Shown: positions 2,390 through 61,896, numbered from the stretch's first letter. The stretch is 64,000 bases of DNA from Candidatus Levyibacteriota bacterium (GCA_016182425.1 JACPGP010000014.1:26846-90845); one strand, 5' to 3'. Program-made: numbers and translations. The notes: a model not told the origin generated them from the letters alone.

Positions 2390-2933
2390 AATTATAAGGA
2401 GAACTAATGCTGTTTTTTTAGAATTTGAGGTTTTAATTCTTCATTGTGTTGGATATATCCCATCTCATCACATTAGACGTTTTTTTTATCGTCTGGCAGG
2501 AGTAAAAATTGGTAAAGGTTCTACAGTTCACACTGGCGCACGATTCTATAACCCAAAGAACATAAGTATCGGAAACGATTCTATTATTGGAGAGGGGGCA
2601 GTTTTAGATGGGAGAGCAAGACTTGCTATTGGCGATCATGTGGATATTGCAACTGATGTAATGATCTATAACTGCGAGCATGATGTAAATAGTTCCGATT
2701 TTGCTCCAGTTTGTGGCCATGTTATTATTGAGGACTATGTATTTATTGGTCCGCGAGTAATTATTTTACCTGGGGTAGTAATTGGTAAAGGAGCTGTTGT
2801 TGCAGCAGGTGCAGTGGTCACAAAAAATGTTGACGCATTCACAATTGTTGGGGGTGTGCCTGCAAAAGTTATCGGAGAAAGAAAAGTAAAAGATTTACAT
2901 TACAAACTTGGACGAGCTGCCTGGTTTCGATAG
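2379..2933 (+). CDS. left-handed beta-helix (hexapeptide) O-acetyltransferase, WcaF-like
   Basis: Hexapeptide repeats: IGKGSTV, IGNDSIIGEGAVL, IGPRVIILPGVVIGKGAVVAAGAVV. Confidence 0.75.
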   Translation: MLNKIIRRTNAVFLEFEVLILHCVGYIPSHHIRRFFYRLAGVKIGKGSTVHTGARFYNPKNISIGNDSIIGEGAVLDGRARLAIGDHVDIATDVMIYNCEHDVNSSDFAPVCGHVIIEDYVFIGPRVIILPGVVIGKGAVVAAGAVVTKNVDAFTIVGGVPAKVIGERKVKDLHYKLGRAAWFR

Positions 2934-2940
2934 GTGAGAT

Positions 2941-3822
2941 ATGGTTGTATTATCAGTCATTATTCTAAATTATAATACTAAAGATTTAACAAAACAATGT
3001 CTAACATCGCTAGAAAATCATTATCGGGAAGAATTAAGAAAAGGAGTATTTGAAATTATTGTTGTTGATAATGCATCGACCGATACTTCGGCATCGGTAA
3101 TCTCAAATCTCAAATCTCAAATCTCAAATCTTACATTGATCAAAAATAAAGAAAATGTTGGATTTTCAAAAGGAAATAATATAGGAGCAAAAAATGCAAA
3201 AGGGAGATATTTATTGTTTTTAAATTCCGATACCGAAGTAGGAGATAATGGCTTACTTAGTGCGGTTTCATATGTAGAAGAACATAAAGATATTGGTGTT
3301 TTGGGCGCCAAATTACGTAACGCGGATGGTTTTGATCAGGCTTCTACCGGAAAATTTTATACCATAGGGAACGTTTTTTTAATGCTTTTTTTGGGTGAGC
3401 GATTCGGTTTATTACGCACCAGTCCAAAAACAATATCTGAAGTAGACTGGGTGAGTGGGGCGGCGCTATTGATAAGAAAAAAATTGTTTGATCAGCTTGG
3501 TGGGTTTGATGATCATTTTTTTATGTATATGGAAGATATGGAGCTTTGCTATCGCGTCAAAAAAATTAGCTATCAGGTTGTTTTTTATCCATACACAGTT
3601 ATTTATCATAAGGAGCTAGGCAGCTCGAATAGGGGTTTTGCAATTGCACATATTTATAAAGGACTTCTTTACTTTTACAAGAAACATATGAATTATATTC
3701 AGTATGTAATAGTTAAGATGTTGCTTATTACAAAAGCCTATGTCGCTATTGCTATTGGCATCTTTACTAATAATACATATTTAAGATCAACGTATAGACA
3801 AGCTCTGGCTTTTTCGCTATGA
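2941..3822 (+). CDS. GT2 glycosyltransferase
   Basis: SVIILNYNT...VVDNASTD...GFSKGNNIG...FLNSD...MEDMELCYR. Confidence 0.8.
   Translation: MVVLSVIILNYNTKDLTKQCLTSLENHYREELRKGVFEIIVVDNASTDTSASVISNLKSQISNLTLIKNKENVGFSKGNNIGAKNAKGRYLLFLNSDTEVGDNGLLSAVSYVEEHKDIGVLGAKLRNADGFDQASTGKFYTIGNVFLMLFLGERFGLLRTSPKTISEVDWVSGAALLIRKKLFDQLGGFDDHFFMYMEDMELCYRVKKISYQVVFYPYTVIYHKELGSSNRGFAIAHIYKGLLYFYKKHMNYIQYVIVKMLLITKAYVAIAIGIFTNNTYLRSTYRQALAFSL
3099..3131 (+). repeat. tandem heptamer AATCTCA x ~4.7, in-frame
   Basis: Direct reading gives aatctca at 3099, 3106, 3113 and 3120, plus aatct. It encodes ISNLKSQISNL. Confidence 0.95.
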
Positions 3823-6800
3823 AAATATTCCGTTTTGTTACCGATAATATCTTGTTTATTCTGACGCTTTTTCTGCTAACGTTTATTCCGTTATATCCTA
3901 AATTGCCCCTCTTAGATGTCAGAAACACATGGGTTTATATTCGAGCAGAAGATTTCGTCGTTGTTTTTGTTCTTTTAGTTTGGTTGCTGCTTCTTATTAG
4001 AAAAAAAATAACATTAAGAACCCCTTTGACATTTCCTATTATTCTTTTTTGGATTATCGGGGCAATTGCCACTATTCATGGTGTACTTTTAATATTTCCA
4101 GTCATAGCAGGGTCTGGTGTCCATACAAATGTAGCATTCTTAAGTTTTTTGCGCAGAATTGAGTATGTAAGTTTATTCTTTGTTGCTTATTCCGGGATAA
4201 AAGATAAACGATCGATTCCTTATGTTGTCGCGGTGATGACGGGGACTCTTATTTTGATTATCGCATATGGCTTTGGGCAAAAATTTTATGGATTCCCCGC
4301 CTATTTGACAATGAATGAAGAATTCGCGAAGGGAATACCCATACGGCTTTCTGAGTTGTCGCGGGTTCCCTCCACTTTTGCCGGCCATTACGATCTGGCC
4401 GCGTATTTGGTTTTGGTGATTCCTATCTTAACAAGCATGATATTCGGATTTAAAAACTGGTTTGTAAAGTTACCTCTTTTGGTAACAATTTCTTTTGGGT
4501 TTGTTCTTCTTTTTATGACGGTATCTCGAGTGTCGTTTTTTGTTCTTTTAATTTCTATGATTTTGGTATTTCTTTTTCAAAAAAAGAGATTGATTATTCT
4601 TTTTCTTTTTATGATAGCCTTCGTATTTTTAAGTTTTTCTTCAAGTCTTCTGCAGCGTTTTGGAGATACGGTTAAAGAGGTTGATGTATTGGTTGACGCA
4701 CAGACAGGAGAGGCAATTGGACATGTAAAAGATATTGAGGCTTCCTATTTTAAGGATAAAATCATTAAAAGAAAATTCGCTCAGACCAAAGACGAAATTA
4801 TCAGGCCGATAGAAGATGAAAAACAGGCTACTTCTTCTGCAAAGGTTCTTTTTACGCAGCTTCCACCGAAAGTGGCGCTTGTTGTCGAATCGAATGCTCC
4901 CACCGGAGAAAATCTGCCACAAGGTACCAGCTATATAAATCTGCCGCTTTCGCCTGTCACCAAAAAATTGGGACAGTTTTTTTACCAAAAATCAAAAGAT
5001 GACAAAACAGCGGAATCTTCTGAAATATTTAGTATTCACGGAGATTTTTTGGTAAAAAAGGCAGTAGCCTATGATCTTTCGTTTACCACCAGATTTCAGG
5101 GGGAATGGCCGCAGGCAATAGATGCGTTTAAGAGAAACATTTTATTTGGAAGCGGATACTCATCGGTTGGACTTGCTGTTGATAACAACTATCTGCGTAT
5201 TTTGGGAGAAGTAGGATTGTTGGGTTTTTCTTCTTTTTTGGCGATATTTTTATTTGCTGGAATTTACATAAAGAAAGTATTACCCGAGGTTGATTCTTTG
5301 GTGGTTAAAAGTTTTATTTTGGGCATGGCTGCAGGTGTCGTTGGTTTAGCCCTAAACGCAGTATTTATTGATGTTTTTGAGGCGTCGAAAATTGCTTTTT
5401 TCCTCTGGCTTTTGCTGGGAGTTACTATTGGAGTACTACATTTGTACCAAAAGAGCGATTTAGATTTTTATAGAGAGTGTAAAAAAGTGACAACCTCTTC
5501 CTCTGCAATTGCTATCTACTTATTTATTATTACAGTTGTAGTATTTTTACCTATTTCTAATTATTTTTTTGTTGGTGATGATTTTACTTGGTTTCGATGG
5601 ATTGCCGATTGCAATATCGGAAATTCCAATGTGCAAGAATGTCCATCAATAACGACCAGAATTATTAGCTATTTCACAGACGCGAATGGGTTTTTTTATC
5701 GGCCGGGAACAAAAGTGTATTTTTTACTGATGTACTCGGGTTTTTGGCTTAATCAAACGTTATATCATATGGTTTCTGTTTTTCTCCATTTTATTGTAGC
5801 AATGCTTCTTTTTTTGATTGCCAAGAAGGTTTTGAGAGATTCTTTTATATCTGCTCTTTCGGCTTTTTTATTTCTTATTTTAAGCGGATATTTCGAAGCG
5901 GTTTTTTGGATTTCTTCAACTGGTTTTCTCTTTAATGCGGTGTTTGCGCTTCTTAGTTTGCTTTTCTTTATTTTGTGGAAAGAAAAAAATAAAATTGTTT
6001 ATTTTATTTTTTGTTTATTCTCTATCATTTTCAGTCTTTTGTTTCATGAGCTGGGAGTAATCACTCCTCTTTTTATCATCCTTTATGAATATGTAACCGA
6101 AGAAAAGTTTATATTCAGGATAGCTTTTAGAGGTGTTTACTACCTAATATTATTTTTCCCTATCCTTCCATATCTGGCTTTACGCTTTTTTGCCCAGAGT
6201 CATTGGTTTAGCGGTGATTACAGTTATAATTTATTAAAGCTTCCTTACAATATTGTTGGTAATGCCATTGGGTATATTATGCTTGCTTTTTTTGGCCCCG
6301 CCTCTTTTCCCATTTATCAGTCGTTGCGGAGTTTTTCTAGAGAGCATATAGTATTTAGCGGAGTTGTTTCCTTGATAATGCTTTATCTAGCCGTTAAGGC
6401 ATATAGAATAATCATTTGGAAAATGACTAAAGATGAGCAAAAAATTGTTATTTTCGGTTCTTTGTTTTTCTTGATAGCGCTTCTGCCATTTTTAGGCTTG
6501 GGAAATATCACTTCTCGATATAGTTATTTATCGTCTATAGGATTTGTGATTCTTTTTTCATTTTTTCTTAAAAAATTATATTTTTATTTACGAAGCAACG
6601 GTCAATACATTGCGCTTTTGAGTGTTATAATGATAGGAAGCATATTTTTTCTTATCCATGTCATTCAGCTGCAAAAAATTCATGAAGATTGGCATGGAGC
6701 AGGTGAGAAAGCGAAGAGATTTTTTATATCAATGGACAGAGTATACATTAATGAGTGGACAAAGGAACATTTACAGTTTTATTTTGTTAATGTGCCAATT

Positions 6801-7001: not shown

Positions 7002-8473
7002 AAAAGAGAGAGTTTTTTTTGTTAACGCTGGTTATTTTGGGCGCGTTTGCTGTTAGATTATATCGGTTTAACGGCCCGGTTGCAGATTGGCATTCATGGA
7101 GACAATCCGATACTGCTGCGGTTTCTCGGAATTTTTTAAAATTTGGTTTTGATGTGTTGCATCCCAGATTTGATGACTTATCAAATGGCGTTTCTCTTTT
7201 AGATAATCCACAAGGGTACAGATTTGTCGAGTTTCCATTCTATAATGTTTTGCAGGCGGGGTTATTTCGTCTTTTTGATCGTTTTACAATCGAGCAGTGG
7301 GGACGGCTGGTCACAAACATTTCGGCAGTTATTGGCATTATTTTTCTTTATTTGCTGGTTAGACTGCATGTTTCCTGGCAAGCAGCGATATTTGCGGCGC
7401 TTTTCTATGCAGTTGTTCCTTATAATGTTTACTATGGAAGAGTGATCTTACCGGATCAGTTGATGACAAGCATGATGCTTGGCTCCATATATTTTTTTGA
7501 CGTCTGGATAGAAAAAAAATATAAATTACTCCTTACACTTTCGGCTGTTTTTTTTGCCACAGCTCTTTTAATAAAACCATACGTTTTATTTTTTGGACTG
7601 TCTATTTTTTACCTGATATACAGGAAATATGGACTAGATTTTGTAAAGAAAAAAGAACTGTGGTTTTTTCTTATATTATCTTTTCTCCCCTTTTTTTTAT
7701 GGAGATGGTGGATGCAGCATTACCCGGAGGGCATACCCCGTAACGATTGGTTATATAACGGAAACGAGATTCGATTTAAGATTGCATTTTTCTGGTGGAT
7801 TTTTGCCGAAAGAATTGCCAAAATTATGCTTGGATACTGGGGTTTGCCAATTGTTATTTTGGGAATCTTGGGTAAAGTAAAAGAGAAAGAAGGATTCTTT
7901 TTTTTAACATTTATCATCTCGTCCCTGGCATATTTGACAGTGTTTGCTACTGGAAATGTGCAACATGAGTATTATCAAATACTTATTGTTCCCACGCTGG
8001 CAATATTTTTTGGAAAAGGTGTTGACGTTTTTTTATCTCTGTCTCAAAAAGAATTTAGCCGTACTATTGGAATAGCTGCGCTGGGCGGGTGTTTTGGTTT
8101 TATGCTTATTTTTAGTTGGCGGGAGATTAGAGCATATTATAATATCAATCACCCGGAAATTATTGAAGCTGGCCGTGCCATAGATAAGCTTACTCCAAAA
8201 GACGCAAAGATTATCGCTATTTATAATGGTGATACAACGTTTCTCTACCATACCAATCGTCAAGGTTGGCCAGTATGGGAAAGACCGCTCTATGAATTTA
8301 TAAAGGCCGGGGCAGGCTACATTACGTTTGTGAATCCTACAAAAGATGAATTAGGTTTTGGAAAACATTACACTACTCTTGCCAGAACTGAAAAGTATGT
8401 TATATTTGATTTAACAAGGCCTCTCTATTTTCCGCCACTGCACGAAGTTGAAGCGTCACAATCGGCAAAATAA
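6998..8473 (+). CDS. GT-C family membrane glycosyltransferase (ArnT/PMT-like)
   Basis: About 10+ TM helices, with the first-loop motif WHSWRQSDTAAVSRNF. Confidence 0.6.
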   Translation: MKKREFFLLTLVILGAFAVRLYRFNGPVADWHSWRQSDTAAVSRNFLKFGFDVLHPRFDDLSNGVSLLDNPQGYRFVEFPFYNVLQAGLFRLFDRFTIEQWGRLVTNISAVIGIIFLYLLVRLHVSWQAAIFAALFYAVVPYNVYYGRVILPDQLMTSMMLGSIYFFDVWIEKKYKLLLTLSAVFFATALLIKPYVLFFGLSIFYLIYRKYGLDFVKKKELWFFLILSFLPFFLWRWWMQHYPEGIPRNDWLYNGNEIRFKIAFFWWIFAERIAKIMLGYWGLPIVILGILGKVKEKEGFFFLTFIISSLAYLTVFATGNVQHEYYQILIVPTLAIFFGKGVDVFLSLSQKEFSRTIGIAALGGCFGFMLIFSWREIRAYYNINHPEIIEAGRAIDKLTPKDAKIIAIYNGDTTFLYHTNRQGWPVWERPLYEFIKAGAGYITFVNPTKDELGFGKHYTTLARTEKYVIFDLTRPLYFPPLHEVEASQSAK

Positions 8474-8476
8474 TGT

Positions 8477-9664
8477 ATGAAAATACTTATTGTTTCCTCT
8501 TTTCTTCCATATCCTCTTTTTTCTGGTGGACATGTCAGGCTTTTTAATCTTATTAAGGAGTTAGCGACAAAACATGAATTGACTATTGTTTGTGAAAAGA
8601 GATCACACCAAACAGATGCAGATATTATGGCAGTTAAGAGGTACTGCCAAACGCTCATTACCGTTGAGAGAAAGAAGCAGTGGTCGTTTCCCAATGTTTT
8701 TAGGACTGGTTTTTCTCCATTTCCATTTCTTCTGGTTGGACACACGAATGATGAAATGAGGCGAGCTATTATTAGACTTATTAATGAAAAATCATTTGAT
8801 CTTATTCATGTGGAAACGTTTTATGTCATGCAGAATATTCCAGACACCCCTCTCCCTGTTGTCTTAGTAGAACACAACATTGAGTATCTAGTATATAAAC
8901 GATATACAAAGATGGCTCCTTTTTTGTTTAGGCCCTTATTATATTTTGATGTTGCGAAACTTAAATATTGGGAAGAGATTTATTGGAGCAAGGCGACAAA
9001 ATTAGTAGCAGTATCGGAGGAAGAAAAAAAATTAATGAATAGAGAAGATGTGGAAGTCGTGTCAAATGGTGTAGATATACAAAAATTCAGAATTCAGAAT
9101 TCAGAATTCAGAATTAATAAAAAGGAGAAAAGAATATTATTCATTGGGGATTTTAAATGGTTACAGAATCGGGATGCTGTAGGGTGGATACTAAACGAAA
9201 TTTGGCCGGAAATAAAATCAAAAATAGAAGCGAAACTGTGGATTGTGGGGAAGGATATTCCTGATTCAATTAAAAAATTGTCGAGTGACCAAAATGTTAT
9301 TTTTGATGAAAATGCGCCAAAAGAGACTGCTGAAATTTTTGCCAAGGCAGATGTGCTTCTGGCCCCGATTAGAGTTGGGGGCGGAACGAGTTATAAAATA
9401 TTAGAAGCAATGGCAAGCGGTGTTCCTGTTATTACAACACCATTGGGTAGAGAGGGGATTGATGCAAAGGACAGGCAAGAAATTTTGCTGGCAGAGGATA
9501 CAGATGAATTTGTTAAAAATATTGTCGATATTTTTGATAATGAAAAACTCTATAAAAAAATCGCGCATAATTCCAGAAAACTAATTGAGGAAAAATATGA
9601 TTGGAAAATAATTGTAAAAAAACTTGAAGATGTTTATCGAGATGCAATTACTACGTATGATTAA
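8477..9664 (+). CDS. GT4 glycosyltransferase
   Basis: FLPYPLFSGGHVR N-terminus, NGVD linker, and GGGTSYKILEAMASGVPVITT in the C-domain. Confidence 0.8.
   Translation: MKILIVSSFLPYPLFSGGHVRLFNLIKELATKHELTIVCEKRSHQTDADIMAVKRYCQTLITVERKKQWSFPNVFRTGFSPFPFLLVGHTNDEMRRAIIRLINEKSFDLIHVETFYVMQNIPDTPLPVVLVEHNIEYLVYKRYTKMAPFLFRPLLYFDVAKLKYWEEIYWSKATKLVAVSEEEKKLMNREDVEVVSNGVDIQKFRIQNSEFRINKKEKRILFIGDFKWLQNRDAVGWILNEIWPEIKSKIEAKLWIVGKDIPDSIKKLSSDQNVIFDENAPKETAEIFAKADVLLAPIRVGGGTSYKILEAMASGVPVITTPLGREGIDAKDRQEILLAEDTDEFVKNIVDIFDNEKLYKKIAHNSRKLIEEKYDWKIIVKKLEDVYRDAITTYD
9084..9115 (+). repeat. tandem heptamer AATTCAG x ~4.6, in-frame
   Basis: Direct reading gives aattcag at 9084, 9091, 9098 and 9105, plus aatt. 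It encodes FRIQNSEFRI. Confidence 0.95.
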
Positions 9665-38894: not shown

Positions 38895-40229
38895 ATGGCA
38901 GAAGGAAAAATTGTTGTCGGTGTAGATATAGGGAGTTCTAAAATTGTCACCCTTATTGCGAAAGTAGTTGATGAAACTATTAATATTCTTGGGGTTTCCG
39001 AGGTTACAGCGGCAGGCATACGAAAAGGTCAAATAGTTGATATCGAAGACGCGGTTTCGGCTGTCAATAGTTCGTTGGAGGGGGCCGAGCGCATGGCTGG
39101 TTACTCCGTGTCCCGCGTAGTGGCCGCAATTGGAGGAAATCATATTGAGAGTCAAAATTCCAAAGGGGTGGTGGCTGTGGCTACTCCTGAGGGGGAAATC
39201 ATGCCCTCTGATTTGAAGCGGGTGATTGATGCTGCCGCTGCTGTGTCTCTTTCTTCAAGTAGAGAAATTATCCATGTGCTTCCTAGAAATTACACAGTGG
39301 ACGGGCAAGAGGGAATTAAAGATCCAATCGGCATGACAGGTATTCGTTTGGAGGTAGATACACACATTATTACGGCCAGCGCCACATCTATTCGCAATTT
39401 GGAAAAAGCGTTGGATGAAGTGGGCGTTGATGTAGAAGGGATAGTAGCAAGCGGCTATGCCAGCAGTCTTTCGGTATTATCGGATACGGAGAAAGAGTTG
39501 GGTGTAGTGTTGGTTGATATTGGAGCAGGCACAACAGACATTTCTATTTATGTTGAAGGATCGGTGGCTTATTCATCTGTTTTGCCAATAGGAGCAAGAC
39601 ACATCACAAACGATTTAGCAATTGGTCTTCGTATTTCGCTGGAGTCGGCTGAGAAAATAAAGCTTTTCTTATCTTCGGTTCAGAAGGAAAAGAAACGAGT
39701 TGAGTATGACGAAGAGGAAGGTCCAAAAGAAAAAGAAGAAAAAACCATCGAGGGGAGGAAAGCAGATTTTGTGGCTAAAGGGGATGAAATAGATTTATCA
39801 GGACTGGCGCTGCCTGAAGAAATTCGAAAGGTTTCCAAAAAGACCCTCATAGAGGGTATTATTCGTCCACGCTTAAACGAAATTTTTACGTTTGTGGGGA
39901 TCGAGATTAAAAAAAGCGGTTTTGCCGGGCAGACACCGGCCGGGCTAGTGGTAACAGGAGGAGGAGCAAAAACCATTGGCGTAATAGACGCAGCCAAACG
40001 AATGTTGGCAATGCCTGTTCGCGTTGGCTTACCAAAAGAACTTAAGGGAATAACAGACGAAATAGAAGATCCGGAGTTTGCCACAGTTATAGGCCTGCTT
40101 CTTTTTGGCGCAAAGCTTGAAGTTTCTCCGTCTCTCCCATTTGGGATTTCTTTTCCTCAGCTATCGGGATTTAAATTGGGGAAGATAGCTAAAAAAGCGA
40201 TTGGGTTTATAAAATCGTTCATGCCATGA
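38895..40229 (+). CDS. ftsA: cell division protein FtsA
   Basis: VGVDIGSSKIV, VLVDIGAGTTD, VVTGGGAK. Confidence 0.9.
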   Translation: MAEGKIVVGVDIGSSKIVTLIAKVVDETINILGVSEVTAAGIRKGQIVDIEDAVSAVNSSLEGAERMAGYSVSRVVAAIGGNHIESQNSKGVVAVATPEGEIMPSDLKRVIDAAAAVSLSSSREIIHVLPRNYTVDGQEGIKDPIGMTGIRLEVDTHIITASATSIRNLEKALDEVGVDVEGIVASGYASSLSVLSDTEKELGVVLVDIGAGTTDISIYVEGSVAYSSVLPIGARHITNDLAIGLRISLESAEKIKLFLSSVQKEKKRVEYDEEEGPKEKEEKTIEGRKADFVAKGDEIDLSGLALPEEIRKVSKKTLIEGIIRPRLNEIFTFVGIEIKKSGFAGQTPAGLVVTGGGAKTIGVIDAAKRMLAMPVRVGLPKELKGITDEIEDPEFATVIGLLLFGAKLEVSPSLPFGISFPQLSGFKLGKIAKKAIGFIKSFMP

Positions 40230-41373: not shown

Positions 41374-43131
41374 TTACTTTATATCTGGATATTTAATAAT
41401 AAATGTTTCGCAGAAGTTTTTTGGTGATAGTTTTTCCACGGCAAGGTCATTAAACGTAAGATTTGCTACATAAGGCTTTAAATTAAATTTTGAACAGATA
41501 CTATCTTGATAAATGTTATACACTGCACCCGAGTCTGAGAGCTGAACAATAGAAAGCGTGTTTTTGACATTTATAAATTGAGTGCATTTTTTCCCGGCAT
41601 CAAAAATATAAATGCTGTTTTTTTCAATTGTTTCTAACTCATCACACGTAATAAATGTTACATTTTTTAATCGATAATTGCGGCGTAAAAATGCATTCTT
41701 AACTTCCTCCGATGTTTGTCTGCTGTATATATTAGAGTAAATAATGTAATTCTTAAATTGATTCTTCGGGTTTCCTAATAATACGGAAGTCTTTTTATTT
41801 TCTGAATTGGCAAGTTGTATATATCGAGACATAAGGCGTGAACTGAATGCTTGTGCTTCTGACGCGAAAACTGGCTGAATGAAAAAATAGGTATAGAGGA
41901 AATTTCCGATTAATAAAACGTAGATTCCACCGATCAAAAGAGAACTTATCATTAAGTATGCTTTACTTTTCTTTATAGTCAGGATTGACCAAATTCCTAC
42001 TCCGATATAGATGTAGAGAAATGGAATATACAAAGACGATCTCATTACATAGGTGATTCCTTCATTGCTTACGATAGTTGGAAGCGGGGATATTAGTATA
42101 ATAGATGTTAAGAGAATCCAAAGTTTTCTATTTCTTGCTAATAAGTAACAAAATCCAAGAATCAAAAATATGAAATCTATATAATAGAAATGTCCGTGAT
42201 TATAGATGTGAAACCGAAGTAATCTTTCTGAATCGACAAAAAGGTTATTTGCTGAGAACGCGCCGATATATTTTCCAATAATGTATTTTGTCGCCACAAA
42301 GGCTTTATTTGAAAAAATTACATAAAAGGGATTTTTTATGGCCATACGTCGTTCAAAGTTGACCTGATTGCTTACATCTGATGCGGAGTAAAAGGTAGCT
42401 TCGTTAAGTCTATTTATGGTGTTACGCTGATACGCATTGAAGAGAAAAAGCGATGTTATACCCAAACACAACAAAAAGAGGGTTAAATATTGTTTTAGGT
42501 ATTTTCTATGATCTACCTGAATCCAGGCGAAGAGAGAAATAATTGCAACGTACGGAATGAGCGTTACTTTATATGCCATGTATGTGTAAAAACCAAGCGC
42601 AAGCGGAATAAATGTCAGTAATTTCTTCCAGCCAGATGTGTTAACGAGCACATAAAACGCTAAGAGGTAAAAAAATACGGCAAGAGACGTTTCGAAAGCC
42701 GACCTTCCGAAGAATATAGCCCATGGATTAAAACAAGCGATAAGCCCTACGATAAGCGCAATTTTTTCATGCAATAGTTTTTTTACAAGTAAATACAATA
42801 CCACGACAAACAATGAATTTGCGATCGCGTAAAAAATATGAGCAGCAAAAAGAGATGACGGCAAAGGTCCGATAATGGGTGACAGATAGATATAAGGGAG
42901 TTCTGCCTGGGCAGGTTCGTCAGGAAGGGGAGTCAGTGAGAATGGGTTCCATTGTCCGGTTACATCATGTCCTGTATAAAAAAATGCTTTTGCATTTAAA
43001 ACGAAGACCATATTATCATTCACTATGCCTATCGGGATTTTATCAAGCGCAATTGTTCGGAGGGTAAAAGCAATAAGAAATAACAAAAGTGGAATTGCGT
43101 AAGGTTTTGTAAATATTGATCGTACAATCAC
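41374..43131 (-). CDS. GT-C family membrane glycosyltransferase (ArnT/PMT-like)
   Basis: Polytopic membrane protein with a GT-C-like first loop (VNDN...). It is divergent from a polyprenyl-P GT2. Confidence 0.55.
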   Translation of the reverse strand: MIVRSIFTKPYAIPLLLFLIAFTLRTIALDKIPIGIVNDNMVFVLNAKAFFYTGHDVTGQWNPFSLTPLPDEPAQAELPYIYLSPIIGPLPSSLFAAHIFYAIANSLFVVVLYLLVKKLLHEKIALIVGLIACFNPWAIFFGRSAFETSLAVFFYLLAFYVLVNTSGWKKLLTFIPLALGFYTYMAYKVTLIPYVAIISLFAWIQVDHRKYLKQYLTLFLLCLGITSLFLFNAYQRNTINRLNEATFYSASDVSNQVNFERRMAIKNPFYVIFSNKAFVATKYIIGKYIGAFSANNLFVDSERLLRFHIYNHGHFYYIDFIFLILGFCYLLARNRKLWILLTSIILISPLPTIVSNEGITYVMRSSLYIPFLYIYIGVGIWSILTIKKSKAYLMISSLLIGGIYVLLIGNFLYTYFFIQPVFASEAQAFSSRLMSRYIQLANSENKKTSVLLGNPKNQFKNYIIYSNIYSRQTSEEVKNAFLRRNYRLKNVTFITCDELETIEKNSIYIFDAGKKCTQFINVKNTLSIVQLSDSGAVYNIYQDSICSKFNLKPYVANLTFNDLAVEKLSPKNFCETFIIKYPDIK

Positions 43132-43993: not shown

Positions 43994-46819
43994 ATGTTTA
44001 AGCCAGTATCTCCCAAAGTTGATTTCCCAAAGCTTGAGGAAGAAATTACAAAGTATTGGAAAGAGAAAAAAATTTTTGAAAAGTCTATTTCTTCCCGTCC
44101 AAAAGATAAAACATGGACCTTTTTGGATGGGCCTCCCTTTGTGACGGGTGTCCCTCATTACGGATCTTTGCTCTCAAGTATCCCCAAAGATGTCTTTGGC
44201 AGGTATTGGACCATGAAGGGATATCGAGTGCGTCGAGTCTGGGGATGGGATGGTCATGGTTTGCCGATTGAAAATAAAGTAGAAACAGCACTAAACATAA
44301 AATCCAAAAAAGAGATTGAGGAAAAGGTGGGAGTAAAAAGATTCATTGAGGAGTGTAAAAAATACGTCAATACTGTTTCTTTGGAATGGGAGTGGTATGT
44401 AGATCGAATTGGCCGATGGGTTGATTTTAAAAACGCTTACAAAACGTGGGATAGAGATTACATGGAGTCTGTGATGTGGGTGTTTAAGCAAATGTACGAA
44501 AAGGGCTATATCTACAAAGGCCTTCGAGTATCGCTTTATTGTCCTCACTGCGCAACGCCAATTTCTAACTTTGAAGTAGCCATGGATGCTGAAAACTATA
44601 AAGAAGTGACAGATGCTGCTACTACCTATAAGTATCCTCTTAGGGATGAAAAAAATACCTTTATCCTTGCTTGGTCCACAACGCCGTGGAATAAAATCGT
44701 TACCCCCGCACTTGCGATTAATCCTAAATTAACTTATGTAAAAGTCAAACAAGGAAATGAGAAATATATTTTGGCTAAATCAACTTTAAAAATTCTAACA
44801 GGGAAATATGACGTGTTTGAGGAATTTAAGGGAGAAGCACTTGTTGGAAAAAAGTTTGTTCCTCATTACGACTACTACAAAATCGAAAAGGGAGAAAAGG
44901 CCTTCAAAATTATTGGTTCGGATTTTGTAACAGCCGAAGAAGGCACAGGCGTAGTAACGATTGCCGCATATGGGGAAGAAGATTTAAAAGTAATGCAGGA
45001 GCAAAATATTCATATTGAAATGCATCTTGATGAGGAAGGAACCATAAAATCAAATGTGCCTGTCTTTGGTGGTATGTATTATCTAAAGGCAAATAAAGCT
45101 GTTAACAAAGATCTGGCACTGCGCGGCTTAATTTATAAAGATGAAGAACTTCCCCATAATGTACCACTTTGTTGGCGATGCCACACCAGGCTCTATTATG
45201 CACCAATCAATGCATGGTATGTAAATGTCCAAACACTAAAAGCTTTAATGAAAAAAACCAATGAAAACGTGCAATGGTTTCCCTCCCACTTTAAGTATGG
45301 AAGATTCTTAAAGAGCATGGAGAATGCGCCTGATTGGAATATTTCACGAAATCGCTATTGGGGTTCTCCTGTGCCTGTGTGGGAATGCGAAAGCTGTGGG
45401 GAGCGATTTGTACCTGGATCGATTGAGGAGCTTGAGAAGACAAGTGGGAAAAAAATTGCAGATCTTCATAAACCAGAGATTGACGAGGTGATTGTTAAGT
45501 GTAAAAGGTGTGGCAAGGATGCCAGGCGTACTACCGAAGTTTTAGATAGCTGGATCGAGGCAGGATCGGCATCTTTTGCCGAGCGCCATTTTCCGTTTAA
45601 TAAGCAAGAAAAGCTTGGGGAGTTCTTTCCTCCTGATTTTATTGCCGAATATACCGGGCAGATTCGGGCCTGGTTTTATGTATTGCATGTCATTGGAGCG
45701 GCGTTATATAAAAGTGAGGCATTCAAGAATGTAGTTGTTGAGGGGGTAATCTTGGGAACTGATGGACGGAAAATGAGCAAGAACTATGGCAATTATCCGG
45801 ACCCAAAAGAAATGCTGCGAAAATACGGCGGCGATGCTCTAAGACTTTACTTAATGGGAAGCCCAGTGATGCATGGAGAAGATATTTTAATTTCTGAAGA
45901 GAAATATAAAGAACAAGTGAGAGGAATACTTCTTATTTTGTGGAATGTTTATAATTTTTTTGTAGGTAATGCAAATGTAGATCAGTATCAACCCCGATTA
46001 AATAGGGGTCAAGTATCAGAAAATGTTTTAGATCGGTGGGTTATAGCACTTTTACAAAAATTGATAAAAGAGATAACAGAGGCTTTAGAGAAGTACGATA
46101 CTGTTTTAGCTATAGAAAAAGCAGAAAAATTTGTCGGTGATCTTTCAACGTGGTACATCCGGCGAAGCAGAGAAAGAGTTGGTCCGACAGCTGATGAGGG
46201 GAAAGACAAACAGGCATTTTACCACACATGTCATAGTGTCTTAACAACACTTTGTAAGCTACTTGCGCCAATAACACCGTTTGTGACAGAAGAGATTTAT
46301 AGGAATCTCGCAGGAGAGGAGTCAGTGCATTTGGCGCAGTGGCCACAGTTTACAGATCCCTCCAGTTCGGCGGGCAGGCACAGTTCACAGATACTAAATG
46401 AAATGGATAATGGTATTACGCTTGCTTCAAAGATACATGCTTTGCGAAAAGAAACAAATGTCAAAGTACGAATTCCTTTACGAAAACTTAACTACAGAGG
46501 CCCACAAGAACCGAGAAAAGACATCCTAAAGATTGTTCTTAGTGAAGTGAATGTTTATGAACTTATCTATGTGGGTAAAGCCGATGAATATGAGGTCGAG
46601 GGTGATACAACTTTGAAAAATCAAGATATCGAAGCAGGAAGAGCGCGGGATATTATTCGAGCCATTCAGGAAGAGCGTAAAATTCTTGGTACAAATTTAG
46701 ATGAAAGAGTAAATGTTGTTTTGCCCTCTTGGCCAAGCTCGTTTGAGGCAGAGATAAAAAAGAAGGCGCTAGTAGGATTTATTTCTAAAGGAGAAACGTT
46801 TAAGGTTTTGCGGTCATGA
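43994..46819 (+). CDS. ileS: isoleucine--tRNA ligase
   Basis: GPPFVTGVPHYGS (HIGH region), KMSKN, CP1 editing insert, and Cys clusters CWRCHT / CESCG / CKRCG. Confidence 0.9.
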   Translation: MFKPVSPKVDFPKLEEEITKYWKEKKIFEKSISSRPKDKTWTFLDGPPFVTGVPHYGSLLSSIPKDVFGRYWTMKGYRVRRVWGWDGHGLPIENKVETALNIKSKKEIEEKVGVKRFIEECKKYVNTVSLEWEWYVDRIGRWVDFKNAYKTWDRDYMESVMWVFKQMYEKGYIYKGLRVSLYCPHCATPISNFEVAMDAENYKEVTDAATTYKYPLRDEKNTFILAWSTTPWNKIVTPALAINPKLTYVKVKQGNEKYILAKSTLKILTGKYDVFEEFKGEALVGKKFVPHYDYYKIEKGEKAFKIIGSDFVTAEEGTGVVTIAAYGEEDLKVMQEQNIHIEMHLDEEGTIKSNVPVFGGMYYLKANKAVNKDLALRGLIYKDEELPHNVPLCWRCHTRLYYAPINAWYVNVQTLKALMKKTNENVQWFPSHFKYGRFLKSMENAPDWNISRNRYWGSPVPVWECESCGERFVPGSIEELEKTSGKKIADLHKPEIDEVIVKCKRCGKDARRTTEVLDSWIEAGSASFAERHFPFNKQEKLGEFFPPDFIAEYTGQIRAWFYVLHVIGAALYKSEAFKNVVVEGVILGTDGRKMSKNYGNYPDPKEMLRKYGGDALRLYLMGSPVMHGEDILISEEKYKEQVRGILLILWNVYNFFVGNANVDQYQPRLNRGQVSENVLDRWVIALLQKLIKEITEALEKYDTVLAIEKAEKFVGDLSTWYIRRSRERVGPTADEGKDKQAFYHTCHSVLTTLCKLLAPITPFVTEEIYRNLAGEESVHLAQWPQFTDPSSSAGRHSSQILNEMDNGITLASKIHALRKETNVKVRIPLRKLNYRGPQEPRKDILKIVLSEVNVYELIYVGKADEYEVEGDTTLKNQDIEAGRARDIIRAIQEERKILGTNLDERVNVVLPSWPSSFEAEIKKKALVGFISKGETFKVLRS
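46344..46392 (+). repeat. heptamer tract CACAGTT TACAGAT | CACAGTT CACAGAT split in its centre by a 21-bp GC-rich insert (46358-46378)
   Basis: Direct reading. The insert ccctccagttcggcgggcagg encodes PSSSAGR in-frame. Confidence 0.9.
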
Positions 46820-50039: not shown

Positions 50040-50076
50040 GCAGAAAAGAGTTTGGGCGCATAGCTCAGTTGGTAGA

Positions 50077-50179
50077 CCCGCCTGCACTGGCCGATTGGCT
50101 CAGTTGGTTAGAGCGCTTCATTCACATTGAAGAGGTCGGAGGTTCGAATCCTCCATCGGCCACAGTTACGGCGGGCAGG
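50077..50179 (+). other. 103-nt insertion in the outer tRNA: GC clamp CCCGCC...GGCGGG flanking the inner tRNA
   Basis: CCCGCC (50077-82) is complementary to GGCGGG (50170-75), and ACT (50086-88) to AGT (50164-66). The 3' flank is shared with ileS 46341-46378. Confidence 0.8.
50089..50162 (+). tRNA. tRNA-Val(CAC), intact, nested in the insertion
   Basis: GGCCGAT/ATCGGCC acceptor, GCTC-AGTTGGTTA-GAGC D-arm, CTTCA-TTCACAT-TGAAG anticodon arm, AGGTC variable loop, GGAGG-TTCGAAT-CCTCC T-arm, A73. No CCA is encoded. Confidence 0.9.
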
Positions 50180-50235
50180 GCGTTGCATTCACATTGCAAA
50201 GGTCCCAAGTTCAAATCTTGGTGCGCCCACAAATT

Positions 50236-59969: not shown

Positions 59970-60964
59970 CTATTCTTTTCTTCTCCCGGCTTTTTTGGCC
60001 GCATGGGGGTGGGGTGGAGAGGCATGTTTTGGAGGTGGGGAAGAGGTTAGCTAAAAAAGGGCACAAGGTAACGGTTGTAACAGAGAGCGCTGGAAATTCG
60101 GGAAATATTTTTGGCATACACATTGTGCGACATGATTTTGGAGGGGGGGACTGGTTTAAAAAATTTCGGATTTGGAAGTGGTTGTGGCAGCATAGAGAGC
60201 TTATAAAAAATGCTGATATTGTGCATGCCCATGACGTGTTTTTCTGGTATCTACCGTTTCGGTTTTTGTATCTTAGCAAACCTGTCTATACCACATTTCA
60301 CGGCTACGAAACTAGGTTTCCCCCTGCAAAAAAAGCCATTTTCTGGCGTAAATTAAGTGAGAAGTTATCGTGGGGCAATATTTGTGTAGGAGACTATATA
60401 CAAAAATGGTATGGTACGATGCCGACCTACGTAACGTATGGAGGCGTAGACGTTCACCTCGGAGGAGTCCATCCGGCCACCTCCGAGGTGCTAAAGATCA
60501 TGTTAATTGGGAGGTTTGAGAAAGATATTGGAGTTTTTCAATATTTAGAAACATTGGATTTTCTAAAAAAACAAAAAATTGATTTCAGATTTGAAGCGTA
60601 TGGGGAAGGCTTGCTGCAAAGACAAATAGAAAAGTATGGAAAAGTATATAGGTATCCGAAAAATATTGAAGAAAAAATTGCAGGTGCGGATGTGGTGTTT
60701 GCGTCGTCGTATCTTTCTATACTGTCAGCTATGGCTGCTAGAAAGCCAGTTATAGCTGTATACACCAACCCGCTTAAAAAGGATTATCTTACTATGATTC
60801 CATTTAGTAAATTTATTTCTATTGTTGACTCGGCAGATAAAATTGCAGATGAAGTCGAAAATTTAGGAAAAACACAGACGAGGGTCGAGCAGGCGTACGC
60901 GTGGGCAAAAGAGCAGACCTGGGAAAAGGTGATGGAAATGTATCTAAAACTTTGGAGGATATGA
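59966..60964 (+). CDS. GT-B fold glycosyltransferase (GT4-like)
   Basis: WPHGGGVERHV N-terminus and GGVD linker. The C-domain is weakly conserved. Confidence 0.55.
   Translation: MTILFFSRLFWPHGGGVERHVLEVGKRLAKKGHKVTVVTESAGNSGNIFGIHIVRHDFGGGDWFKKFRIWKWLWQHRELIKNADIVHAHDVFFWYLPFRFLYLSKPVYTTFHGYETRFPPAKKAIFWRKLSEKLSWGNICVGDYIQKWYGTMPTYVTYGGVDVHLGGVHPATSEVLKIMLIGRFEKDIGVFQYLETLDFLKKQKIDFRFEAYGEGLLQRQIEKYGKVYRYPKNIEEKIAGADVVFASSYLSILSAMAARKPVIAVYTNPLKKDYLTMIPFSKFISIVDSADKIADEVENLGKTQTRVEQAYAWAKEQTWEKVMEMYLKLWRI
60448..60490 (+). repeat. GC-rich palindromic element, copy A (in-frame in GT4-like gene)
   Basis: The 11-bp stem cacctcggagg (60455-65) pairs with cctccgaggtg (60480-90). Its first 22 nt are identical to copy B. 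Confidence 0.9.
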
Positions 60965-61896
60965 AGATTTCGTTTATTACAACTGTTTTTAATGAGGAAG
61001 CGACAGTTGAGGCGCTGTTGGAATCTATCATACGGCAGTCGAGGATGCCGGATGAGGTAATTATTGTAGATGGAGGAAGTACAGACGCTACGGCATCTAT
61101 AATTTCAAATTTCACAAAGACGTTCACCTCGGAGGAGTCGAAGTCGCTGCTTCGCCACCATCCGAGGTGGAAAACTATTACGAAAAAAGGAAACAGGGCG
61201 GTGGGGAGGAATGAGGCGATAAGGCAGGCGAGTGGGGATGTTATTGTATCTTCGGATGCGGGGTGTGTGTTGGATAAGGATTGGGTGAAAAATATTACCG
61301 AGCCGTTTAAAAATAAAGATGTCGATGTTGTTGCAGGATACTACAAAGGCATGCCAAGAACAATATTTCAAAAGTGTCTTGTACCGTATGTTTTGGTTAT
61401 GCCGGATAAAGTTGATCCACAAAATTTTCTTCCGGCAAGCCGTTCTATGGCATTTACAAAAAAGATATGGGAAAAAGCAGGAGGTTTTCCAGAAAAATAT
61501 TCCTCAAATGAAGACTTTGTATTTGCAAAGAGACTTAAAGAAATTAGCGCAAAAATTGTCTTTGCCAAAGATGCAATTCTCTATTGGATGCCTCGAAAAA
61601 ACCTCAAAGAGGCATTCGCTATGTTTTTTCGTTTTGCCTATGGTGATGCGCAAGCAGGAATCTTGCGGCCAAAAGTTTTTTTAATCTTTCTTCGTTATTT
61701 TCTTGGTGTTCTATTATTGTTAAGTTATATTAATGCTTTCTACGTAGTAGTTATTTTGTATACGGTCTGGTCAATATGGAAAAATTATCGCTATGCCAAA
61801 AAGTGGCAAGCAATTTTTATTTTGCCTATACTACAGATAGTGTCTGATATGGCGGTTTTATTAGGGACAATATGGGGTATACAAAACAAGCGATAA
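60961..61896 (+). CDS. GT2 glycosyltransferase with C-terminal TM segments
   Basis: ISFITTVFNEE, VDGGSTD, GNRAVGRNEAI, SSDAG. The ATG at 60961 (ATGA overlap) is preferred. Confidence 0.75.
   Translation: MKISFITTVFNEEATVEALLESIIRQSRMPDEVIIVDGGSTDATASIISNFTKTFTSEESKSLLRHHPRWKTITKKGNRAVGRNEAIRQASGDVIVSSDAGCVLDKDWVKNITEPFKNKDVDVVAGYYKGMPRTIFQKCLVPYVLVMPDKVDPQNFLPASRSMAFTKKIWEKAGGFPEKYSSNEDFVFAKRLKEISAKIVFAKDAILYWMPRKNLKEAFAMFFRFAYGDAQAGILRPKVFLIFLRYFLGVLLLLSYINAFYVVVILYTVWSIWKNYRYAKKWQAIFILPILQIVSDMAVLLGTIWGIQNKR
61101..61114 (+). repeat. tandem heptamer AATTTCA x2, immediately 5' of palindromic copy B
   Basis: aatttca aatttca. The site is homologous to the x4.7 AATCTCA tract in the paralogous GT2 at 3099. 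Confidence 0.8.
61118..61169 (+). repeat. GC-rich palindromic element, copy B (in-frame in GT2 gene)
   Basis: cacctcgga (61125-33) pairs with tccgaggtg (61161-69). An inner hairpin is cgaag-tcgctg-cttcg. The first 22 nt are identical to copy A. Confidence 0.9.

Follow-up and report, generated by a model that had tools for sequence, protein, structure and literature searches.

A GC-rich in-frame block in ileS of a Candidatus Levybacteria genome resembles the ends of a tRNA-carrying cassette nested in a nearby tRNA-Val gene

The isoleucine--tRNA ligase gene (ileS) of a Candidatus Levybacteria genome (Candidate Phyla Radiation (CPR)/Patescibacteria) contains a 21-nt GC-rich block that is read here as a degenerate, cargo-less derivative of an insertion cassette lying within a tRNA-Val(CAC) gene ~3.8 kb downstream. 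The block would have arisen by a DNA-level event, would occupy a tolerant loop of the enzyme and would be translated with the rest of the protein; a probability of roughly 0.6 was assigned to this reading. The stretch analyzed, called the window throughout, is 64,000 nt of one strand (GCA_016182425.1 JACPGP010000014.1:26846-90845), and all coordinates are counted from its first letter unless a locus of another assembly (L numbers) is named. A model's earlier inspection of the window from its letters (hereafter the sequence-only reading) had pointed out strings shared by ileS and the tRNA locus, an in-frame insert encoding PSSSAGR, and a tract of four 7-bp units around it, and all of these were recovered as described. 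The features of the ileS locus that carry the argument are as follows.

43994-46819, + strand: ileS host gene (isoleucine--tRNA ligase, 941 aa), from the open reading frame (ORF) and its translation
46341-46350, + strand: GGCCACAGTT, a 10-mer shared with the inner-tRNA 3' end and the start of the cassette 3' end, in codons TGG CCA CAG TT(T) (W P Q F)
46358-46378, + strand: GC-rich 21-nt block CCCTCCAGTTCGGCGGGCAGG, in frame with ileS and encoding PSSSAGR; proposed cargo-less cassette derivative
46358-46363, + strand: CCCTCC, agreeing in 5/6 bases with the cassette 5' end CCCGCC, read from sequence
46363-46378, + strand: putative copy of the cassette 3' end, CAGTT-CGGCGGGCAGG = CAGTTCGGCGGGCAGG, with 16/17 bases of CAGTTACGGCGGGCAGG and one A missing

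The ileS product was 100% identical to protein P0001, annotated as a Candidatus Levybacteria IleS, and contained the Pfam domains tRNA-synt_1 and Anticodon_1; PSSSAGR is encoded in frame directly after SVHLAQWPQFTD. The tRNA locus consists of one tRNA gene inside another, with the cassette ends at the two junctions.

50054-50076, + strand: outer (resident) tRNA-Val(CAC), 5' part, ending midway along the 3' strand of the D stem (ARAGORN, after removal of 50077-50179)
50077-50088, + strand: cassette 5' end CCCGCCTGCACT, kept as CCGCGCCTGCACT or CCACGCCTACACT in L034, L041, L040 and L044
50089-50162, + strand: inner tRNA-Val(CAC), the cassette cargo (ARAGORN; Rfam tRNA, 73.1 bits)
50163-50179, + strand: cassette 3' end CAGTTACGGCGGGCAGG, likely donor of the ileS block and ~3.8 kb downstream of it on the same strand; identical in L034, L040-L046 and L048
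50180-50229, + strand: outer (resident) tRNA-Val(CAC), 3' part (Rfam partial tRNA match at 50171-50229)

An insert of 103 nt (50077-50179) thus splits the outer gene (50054-50229) within the 3' strand of the D stem. Run on the native sequence, ARAGORN called only the inner tRNA; with the 103 nt deleted it called an intact tRNA-Val(CAC). The cassette ends can pair: CCCGCC:GGCGGG forms a stable closing stem that encloses the inner tRNA (z = -2.4 to -2.7). At the syntenic site in L005, L066 and L067 a single, uninterrupted tRNA-Val(CAC) was found, and none of these three carries the ileS block either. The tRNA of L066 is nearly identical to the outer tRNA of the window, and L066 was therefore taken as a true empty site.

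Two exact strings are held in common, GGCCACAGTT at 46341-46350 and 50158-50167 and CGGCGGGCAGG at 46368-46378 and 50169-50179, and neither has a third site on either strand of the window. The second lies within the longer match of 16/17 bases to CAGTTACGGCGGGCAGG, and this match, for which ~2e-4 occurrences would be expected in 64 kb, bears out the proposed relationship between the ileS block and the flanks of the tRNA-borne insertion. At the other end CCCTCC agrees with the cassette 5' end in five of six bases (p ~0.005 for a match at a fixed position, by our own estimate). This hexamer could equally derive from the cassette 5' end or from ATCCTCC in the inner-tRNA T stem, two origins that its sequence does not distinguish; it is a weak match and is all that is seen in ileS of the cassette 5' motif CC(G)CGCCTGCACT, TGCACT being absent. 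The two ends abut in ileS with one base in common and nothing between them. Little weight was placed on GGCCACAGTT, which would serve at most as microhomology, because it encodes the conserved W-P (invariant or nearly so among orthologs at this position, with F frequent after it) and because an equally good gapped match exists in ftsA.

The block is compositionally aberrant within its gene. Its G+C content (16/21) ranked first among the 935 in-frame 7-codon windows of ileS and fell in the top 0.15% of such windows across 40 long ORFs, and its codon adaptiveness lay at the 5.6th percentile. The window as a whole holds 67 GC-rich 21-mers, so that GC-richness by itself was dropped as evidence and only the in-frame rank within ileS was considered notable. 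The suggestion that the block can form a GC hairpin of 5/6 bp did not hold up as a structural signal: the fold has a free energy of -6.2 kcal/mol and is no more stable than those of shuffled sequences (z = +0.2).

Neither locus is an assembly artefact, since independent assemblies reproduce both. Five Logan assemblies, independent of one another and made from different runs (L001-L004, L057), have the same ileS DNA, and L058 (SRR4343429, a different run series) spans the nested tRNA locus with 100% identity over 8359 nt. Every assembly examined carries the block and no polymorphism was found there; in the 90% protein cluster of IleS the sole other member, P0121, differs in its start codon alone. 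Several Logan contigs stop within the anticodon arm of the inner tRNA (50108-50127): L001, L002 and L057 end at ~50125-50127 and L059-L061 start at 50108-50111, while L058 reads through. These breaks suggest a branch in the assembly graph, with other sequence in the same samples containing part of the inner tRNA.

PSSSAGR is confined to the lineage of the window. In an alignment of 120 IleS sequences, 119 of them orthologs 68-77% identical, the heptapeptide occurred in 0/119 orthologs, which was the outcome that an ortholog alignment had been expected to give if the insertion was lineage specific. No IleS relative closer than 76% identity was found in the databases searched. Read as DNA, ileS of the syntenic loci L005, L042, L066 and L067 contained no trace of the block motif, though L042 does have a cassette. 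The segment following SVHLxxWP is a length-variable linker, with 13 residues from WP to EM in the typical ortholog, 15 in P0002 (76% identical) and 18 in the window. The linker is therefore longer by a net 5 residues than the family norm and by 3 than in the nearest relative, whereas the sequence-only reading had counted an exact addition of seven codons; with a net gain of just 3-5 residues, the block probably replaced part of an ancestral linker. At the codon level the window and its nearest relative L005 have TGG CC- ... ACA GAT (W P. T D) in common, and homology ends exactly at CCCTCC. The L005 linker also has local repeats. Alignment to the solved IleRS structure 8c8v placed a 5-residue gap at the block position. 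In an AlphaFold model of the window IleS (mean predicted local distance difference test score (pLDDT) 83), residues 781-791 were modeled as coil and 792-820 as helix, with pLDDT dipping to 79-85 at the block, which would put the block in a loop and the N-terminal end of the following helix.

The cassette is not confined to the window. A genome scan with the query GGCCACAGTT-N(0-20)-CGGCGGGCAGG returned L006-L039, mostly from taxonomically unrelated genomes but including one Microgenomates metagenome-assembled genome (L034); a tRNA scan of four of the matches other than L034 found no tRNA. A metagenome scan with CCACAGTTACGGCGGGCAGG returned nine loci, 8/9 of them tRNA-linked. The remaining one, L047, was discarded as a chance match in GC-rich coding sequence. 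The family was defined from the window, L034, L040-L046 and L048, which are arranged as follows.

L034, 5840-6090, - strand: the same ends flanking a Val(TAC) nested in a Val(TAC)-like gene
L041, ~1660-1870: Val(TAC) inside Val(TAC)
L044 (L042 alike), ~8560-8760, - strand: Val(CAC) inside Val(CAC)
L040, ~2815-3045: Ala(CGC) inside Ala(CGC)
L043, 1920-2281, - strand: three nested Val(CAC) levels as read, the contig ending inside the array and the outer 5' parts incomplete
L045 (12211-12334), L046 and L048: tRNA-Ala(CGC) followed by the 3' end motif and by a second copy of its own 3' half

The common layout is a 5' end CC(G)CGCCTGCACT of 12-13 nt, a tRNA (Val(TAC), Val(CAC) or Ala(CGC)) and the 17-nt 3' end CAGTTACGGCGGGCAGG, the whole nested in a resident tRNA of the same anticodon. 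In L034, L040-L046 and L048 the 3' end always stands right after a tRNA 3' end. Insertion points were the D stem and positions 35/36 or 37/38 of the anticodon loop. The acceptor stem of the inner tRNA-Val (GGCCG.../...CGGCC) is common to the window, L034, L041 and L044, and the 5' end varies (CCCGCC, CGCGCC, CACGCC) with the other side uncompensated. In L045 the 3'-half copy (35 nt) is identical to the 3' half of its own tRNA and the 5' end motif is missing; loci of this type look like nested cassettes resolved by recombination between identical 5' halves of the inner and outer genes, or like the product of an attachment (att) site duplication. The outer tRNA of L034 has in its D loop an extra AT-rich insert of ~65 nt that starts with the hairpin CCCCGATTAAATCGGGG (6030-6085, - strand).

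Forms without a tRNA exist as well, as the description of the ileS block as an empty copy would have it. In L040 a hairpin element of 40 nt, CCCGCCTGCA-GAAGCTATCGCTTC-AGCGATTGCGGGCAGG, lies in the T loop of the outer tRNA-Ala. In L043 there is one of 43 nt in reverse orientation, whose inner stem sequence is wholly different yet self-complementary, and a 20-nt hairpin, CCTGCC...GGCAGG (CCTGCCTGCCGGTAGGCAGG), in the T stem. These shortest members (20-43 nt) keep an internal hairpin, unlike the ileS block, whose likeness is to the tRNA-bearing type present in its own genome. The L043 array holds several small GC-rich hairpin inserts alongside its nested tRNAs.

L042 and L044 offer a comparison of an intact and a decayed outer gene. 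Their neighboring genes are 95-100% identical, and the 311 nt aligned around the tRNA are identical except that 36 nt of the outer-tRNA 3' half are missing in L042 (~6280, against ~8585-8620, - strand, in L044); the outer tRNA thus appears dispensable once the inner one is present. Just downstream, both loci contain an orphan tRNA 3' half, CAGGTTTCTGGTCCAAACCCAGGCGCGACCA. The inner and outer tRNAs of L044 have an identical 24-nt anticodon arm and different acceptor and T arms, which hints at gene conversion between the nested copies. The neighborhood ileS-ftsW-rplU-rpmA-parB-lepB-tRNA-Val is common to the window and L042/L044. Even so, the insertion lies in the D stem in the window and at 37/38 in L042/L044, the inner tRNAs differ and closer relatives have an uninterrupted gene, which together point to independent invasions of the same tRNA-Val gene. 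The searchable literature on nested tRNAs, and on tRNA introns of CPR and Microgenomates, yielded only work on group I introns and nothing that describes such cassettes; the family is apparently undescribed.

That a fast-evolving, repeat-prone, length-variable IleS linker simply happens to look like a cassette end is the most serious competitor of a cassette origin, although we consider it unlikely. Direct exact matches of >=10 nt number 5140 in the window; 15 collinear 10+10 pairs whose gap is <=30 nt are comparable to the ileS pair, and under composition-aware scoring (direct strand only) 7.5% of dinucleotide shuffles hold a pair at least as improbable. GC-rich islands are common, as noted above; in large databases, coding DNA yields exact 17- and 20-mer matches by chance (L047, L049-L051 and most of L006-L039), three 17-mer matches in viral contigs having been set aside as coding-sequence coincidences; and the L005 linker, too, has local repeats. 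The picture changes when the motif is defined externally, from the family. For both strands of the 64 kb, a first-order Markov model predicts 1.4e-4 matches to CAGTTACGGCGGGCAGG with <=1 edit, and local composition 2.0-2.5e-4; outside the tRNA locus the window has exactly one, in ileS. When the joined cassette ends were scored against windows of real sequence, ileS scored 28 and the best of 3178 others 21. Moreover, the match falls exactly in the lineage-specific, compositionally aberrant segment and its left edge coincides with the loss of homology to relatives, the cassette is 3.8 kb away in the same genome, and the three cassette-free relatives are without the block. The initial judgment that chance recurrence was very unlikely consequently stands against the external 17-mer (~2e-4) and falls for the window taken on its own (p ~0.075).

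Several results weigh against a cassette origin. Window-wide and with no external motif, the coincidence is not significant (p ~0.075). When the query was extended by the 3' part of the inner tRNA, an unrelated ftsA segment scored level with ileS by way of a gapped alignment. Because an exact match to the 3' end was how family members were retrieved, the invariance of that end is built into the sample and divergent members went unsampled. A pure 21-nt insertion would imply an ancestral linker of 11 residues, against 13 in the typical ortholog and 15 in the nearest relative, and a more complex replacement must be assumed. Every other family member found lies in a tRNA gene, the ileS copy being the sole one in a protein-coding gene. 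An element family is real, but the dispersed family targeting coding DNA that the sequence-only reading had suggested was not borne out. Finally, no mobility gene is shared beside the cassettes, an all-against-all BLASTP comparison of neighboring ORFs having given only syntenic neighbors.

The search for additional copies, proposed at the outset as a check, gave members in tRNA genes of other genomes only. Within the window none was found with up to 3 mismatches to either cassette end, none in ~12 kb beyond the window ends (L052-L056), and none in coding DNA of ~100 kb of related loci. The occurrence of CCCGCCTGCA at 7251-7260 (- strand) and of GCCTGC...GCAGGC at 2184-2201 was read as chance or as conserved glycosyltransferase coding sequence. 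CCTCCAATTGCGGCCACTACGCGGGACACGGAGT, at 39104-39140 (- strand) in the ORF that corresponds by synteny to ftsA, gives a gapped alignment to the inner-tRNA 3' end and 3' end motif; it lies on the strand opposite to the ftsA ORF and was for that reason treated as a chance match.

If the block does derive from the cassette, the piece copied would have comprised the 3' end (16/17 bases), probably together with the six bases that open the 5' end (5/6), and it would have entered ileS at the DNA level, in the lineage of the window. Two routes may be envisaged: a miniature copy could have been inserted by the machinery of the cassette family itself, or the sequence could have been copied from the nearby cassette during repair or replication, possibly aided by the pre-existing microhomology of GGCCACAGTT. 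A simple template switch from GGCCACAGTT into the cassette was rejected; it fails to give the intervening TACAGATCCCTC, and variants of it fit only with too many free choices. The piece would have landed in the loop of variable length that joins the final helix of the anticodon-binding domain (SVHL..WP) to the long helix after it, and there would have replaced part of the ancestral linker. Because the net change kept the frame, the block would simply be translated and tolerated. A related reading, milder and more likely than the excision from RNA considered below and given somewhat less than even odds, holds that the block is a mobilized miniature of an undescribed DNA element that replaces tRNA genes and is able to colonize essential coding genes in frame.

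The block is flanked by the two halves of the 4 x 7-bp tract, whose copies are as follows.

46344-46357, + strand: left copy of a 13/14 direct repeat, CACAGTTTACAGAT (CACAGTT-TACAGAT), which holds the ancestral coding sequence F-T-D
46379-46392, + strand: right copy, CACAGTTCACAGAT (CACAGTT-CACAGAT), codons H S S Q I, in a frame different from that of the left copy

The tract amounts to a 13/14 direct repeat with 35-nt spacing, of which the window contains 13 against 1.1 in shuffles. Its interpretation as a target-site duplication around a 35-nt insertion was rejected: removal of 35 nt gives WPQFTDTK and a stop, with a linker of only 7 residues. No target duplication was seen at the tRNA insertions.

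An excision at the RNA level would account for the same sequences in another way. An activity that recognizes the GC-rich ends would cut the cassette out of the outer pre-tRNA and the 21 nt out of the ileS mRNA, giving a protein without PSSSAGR, as the sequence-only reading had entertained. Most outer tRNAs are still perfect cloverleaves after one or two insertions, and that of L040 keeps the G3:U70 alanine identity pair; the insertion sites (D stem, anticodon loop, T loop, T stem) are those of archaeal non-canonical introns; the CCCGCC:GGCGGG stem around the inner tRNA is stable, and loss of 21 nt preserves the ileS frame. Against this, inspection of the window, L034, L040, L043 and the folds revealed no bulge-helix-bulge at the junctions, the 3' end GCAGG of the insert being unpaired with the exon before the 5' junction, and Rfam at gathering thresholds gave tRNA only for the window, L034, L040, L041, L043, L044 and L045. 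A group I or group II intron was rejected on the same grounds, no ribozyme core being found by the Rfam covariance models at those thresholds. The clamp helix is not maintained, as the 5' end variants are uncompensated, and the ileS hairpin is no better than shuffles. One tRNA-less element is reversed, and L042 has deleted most of the 3' half of its outer tRNA with no other change, as would be expected of a dispensable gene. An IleS linker minus seven residues would also be shorter than that of nearly all orthologs. Taken together, the 36-nt loss in L042, the reversed tRNA-less element, the lack of a bulge-helix-bulge and the lack of an Rfam intron suggest insertion at the DNA level, after which the resident tRNA gene becomes dispensable, and excision from ileS mRNA was judged improbable. 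Were it nonetheless correct, the elements would be a new intron-like class in CPR, freeing the nested tRNA and rejoining the outer one, with protein-dependent splicing of tRNA and mRNA in bacteria.

Least probable of the explanations considered, and by a wide distance from chance resemblance, is a functional site shared by ileS and tRNA-Val, that is, a DNA- or RNA-binding or processing motif under selection in both, for example in coordinated regulation. In its favor, the motif is perfectly conserved across distant genomes, and ileS and the tRNA stand in the same conserved neighborhood. The conservation of the 3' end is, however, partly an artefact of retrieval; among relatives of like synteny, L005, L066 and L067 have the motif in neither gene and L042/L044 in the tRNA only; and the ileS copy is imperfect, with one deletion. 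Such probability as is not taken up by the derivation of the block from the cassette and by its three competitors belongs to scenarios that could not be specified here.

Two further observations concern other parts of the window. At 60448-60493 an 11-bp perfect inverted repeat, CACCTCGGAGG...CCTCCGAGGTG, is followed 670 nt downstream by a second copy (61118-61169); the two, in adjacent glycosyltransferase-like ORFs, have an identical stretch of 22 nt and a similar end, and no chained repeat in the window is stronger. An ORF of 585 aa (41374-43131, - strand), situated between ftsZ and the gene that precedes ileS, has no Pfam match on record, and L005 has at the same position an ORF of 605 aa, likewise with no match.

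Taken alone, the ileS block is a small loop extension and probably neutral. Its interest lies in what it may mark: that the cassette ends are able to persist and spread with no tRNA between them and in genes of another kind, which would make the ends the active part of the element. The nested tRNA of the window is likewise not a one-off, as the family extends across Microgenomates metagenomes with up to three levels of nesting (L043, as read) and with decaying outer genes. Interruptions of bacterial tRNA genes in the searchable literature are limited to group I and II introns. If confirmed, the family would offer reduced genomes a new way of replacing tRNA genes present in single copy and would parallel, in bacteria, the disrupted tRNA genes known from Archaea; it could also cause tRNA genes of CPR genomes to be missed or mis-annotated.

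The closest known analogue of the ileS copy is probably in-frame selfish DNA such as the Rickettsia palindromic elements (RPEs), in-frame inserts in protein-coding genes that were reportedly described by Ogata et al. in 2000. RPEs are ~100-150 bp long and present in tens of copies, many in ORFs, and the same family occurs also in RNA genes. In common with RPEs and with repeats resembling miniature inverted-repeat transposable elements, the proposed derivative would be short selfish DNA with self-complementary ends, placed in frame in a tolerant loop of an essential gene and translated, and like an RPE it is an in-frame, lineage-specific insertion. It differs in being 21 nt long and in belonging to a family otherwise restricted to tRNA genes and often carrying a tRNA. 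Other defining features of RPEs are nevertheless lacking: the block is a single coding copy in 64 kb and ~12 kb of flanks in place of many, and its hairpin is not significant.

For the cassette family as a whole, the nearest analogues would be the disrupted tRNA genes of Archaea and the integrative elements that target tRNA genes, although for each the defining tests failed. Archaeal tRNA genes include introns at non-canonical positions, mobile introns and split tRNAs. The resemblance lies in short, GC-clamped inserts in the D arm, anticodon loop and T arm, several per gene, and in insert sequences conserved between different tRNA genes, which implies mobility; a passage of PMC3293823 proposes a mobile element as the cause of tRNA gene disruption in Archaea. 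The cassettes differ in their bacterial (CPR) host, in the lack of a bulge-helix-bulge, in the cargo of a complete tRNA of the same anticodon and in the decay of at least one outer tRNA. Integrative elements are said (Williams, 2002) to target tRNA genes and to bring a replacement for the part displaced. Here too insertion is into the anticodon loop or T loop, tRNA function would be restored by element-borne sequence, and displaced 3' halves are left downstream, as in the duplicated 3' half of L045 and the further 3' relic of L044; the cassettes differ in having no integrase and no element body, the insert being ~100 nt with a complete tRNA and not a 3' segment. Group I introns in tRNA genes of Patescibacteria hide those genes from standard annotation tools (PMC13011429). 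The insert of the window, at 103 nt, with no Rfam intron match and built of a tRNA between ends of 12 and 17 nt, is of another kind, and yet the setting is alike: the phylum is the same, the inserts lie in tRNA genes, and ARAGORN called the inner tRNA only.

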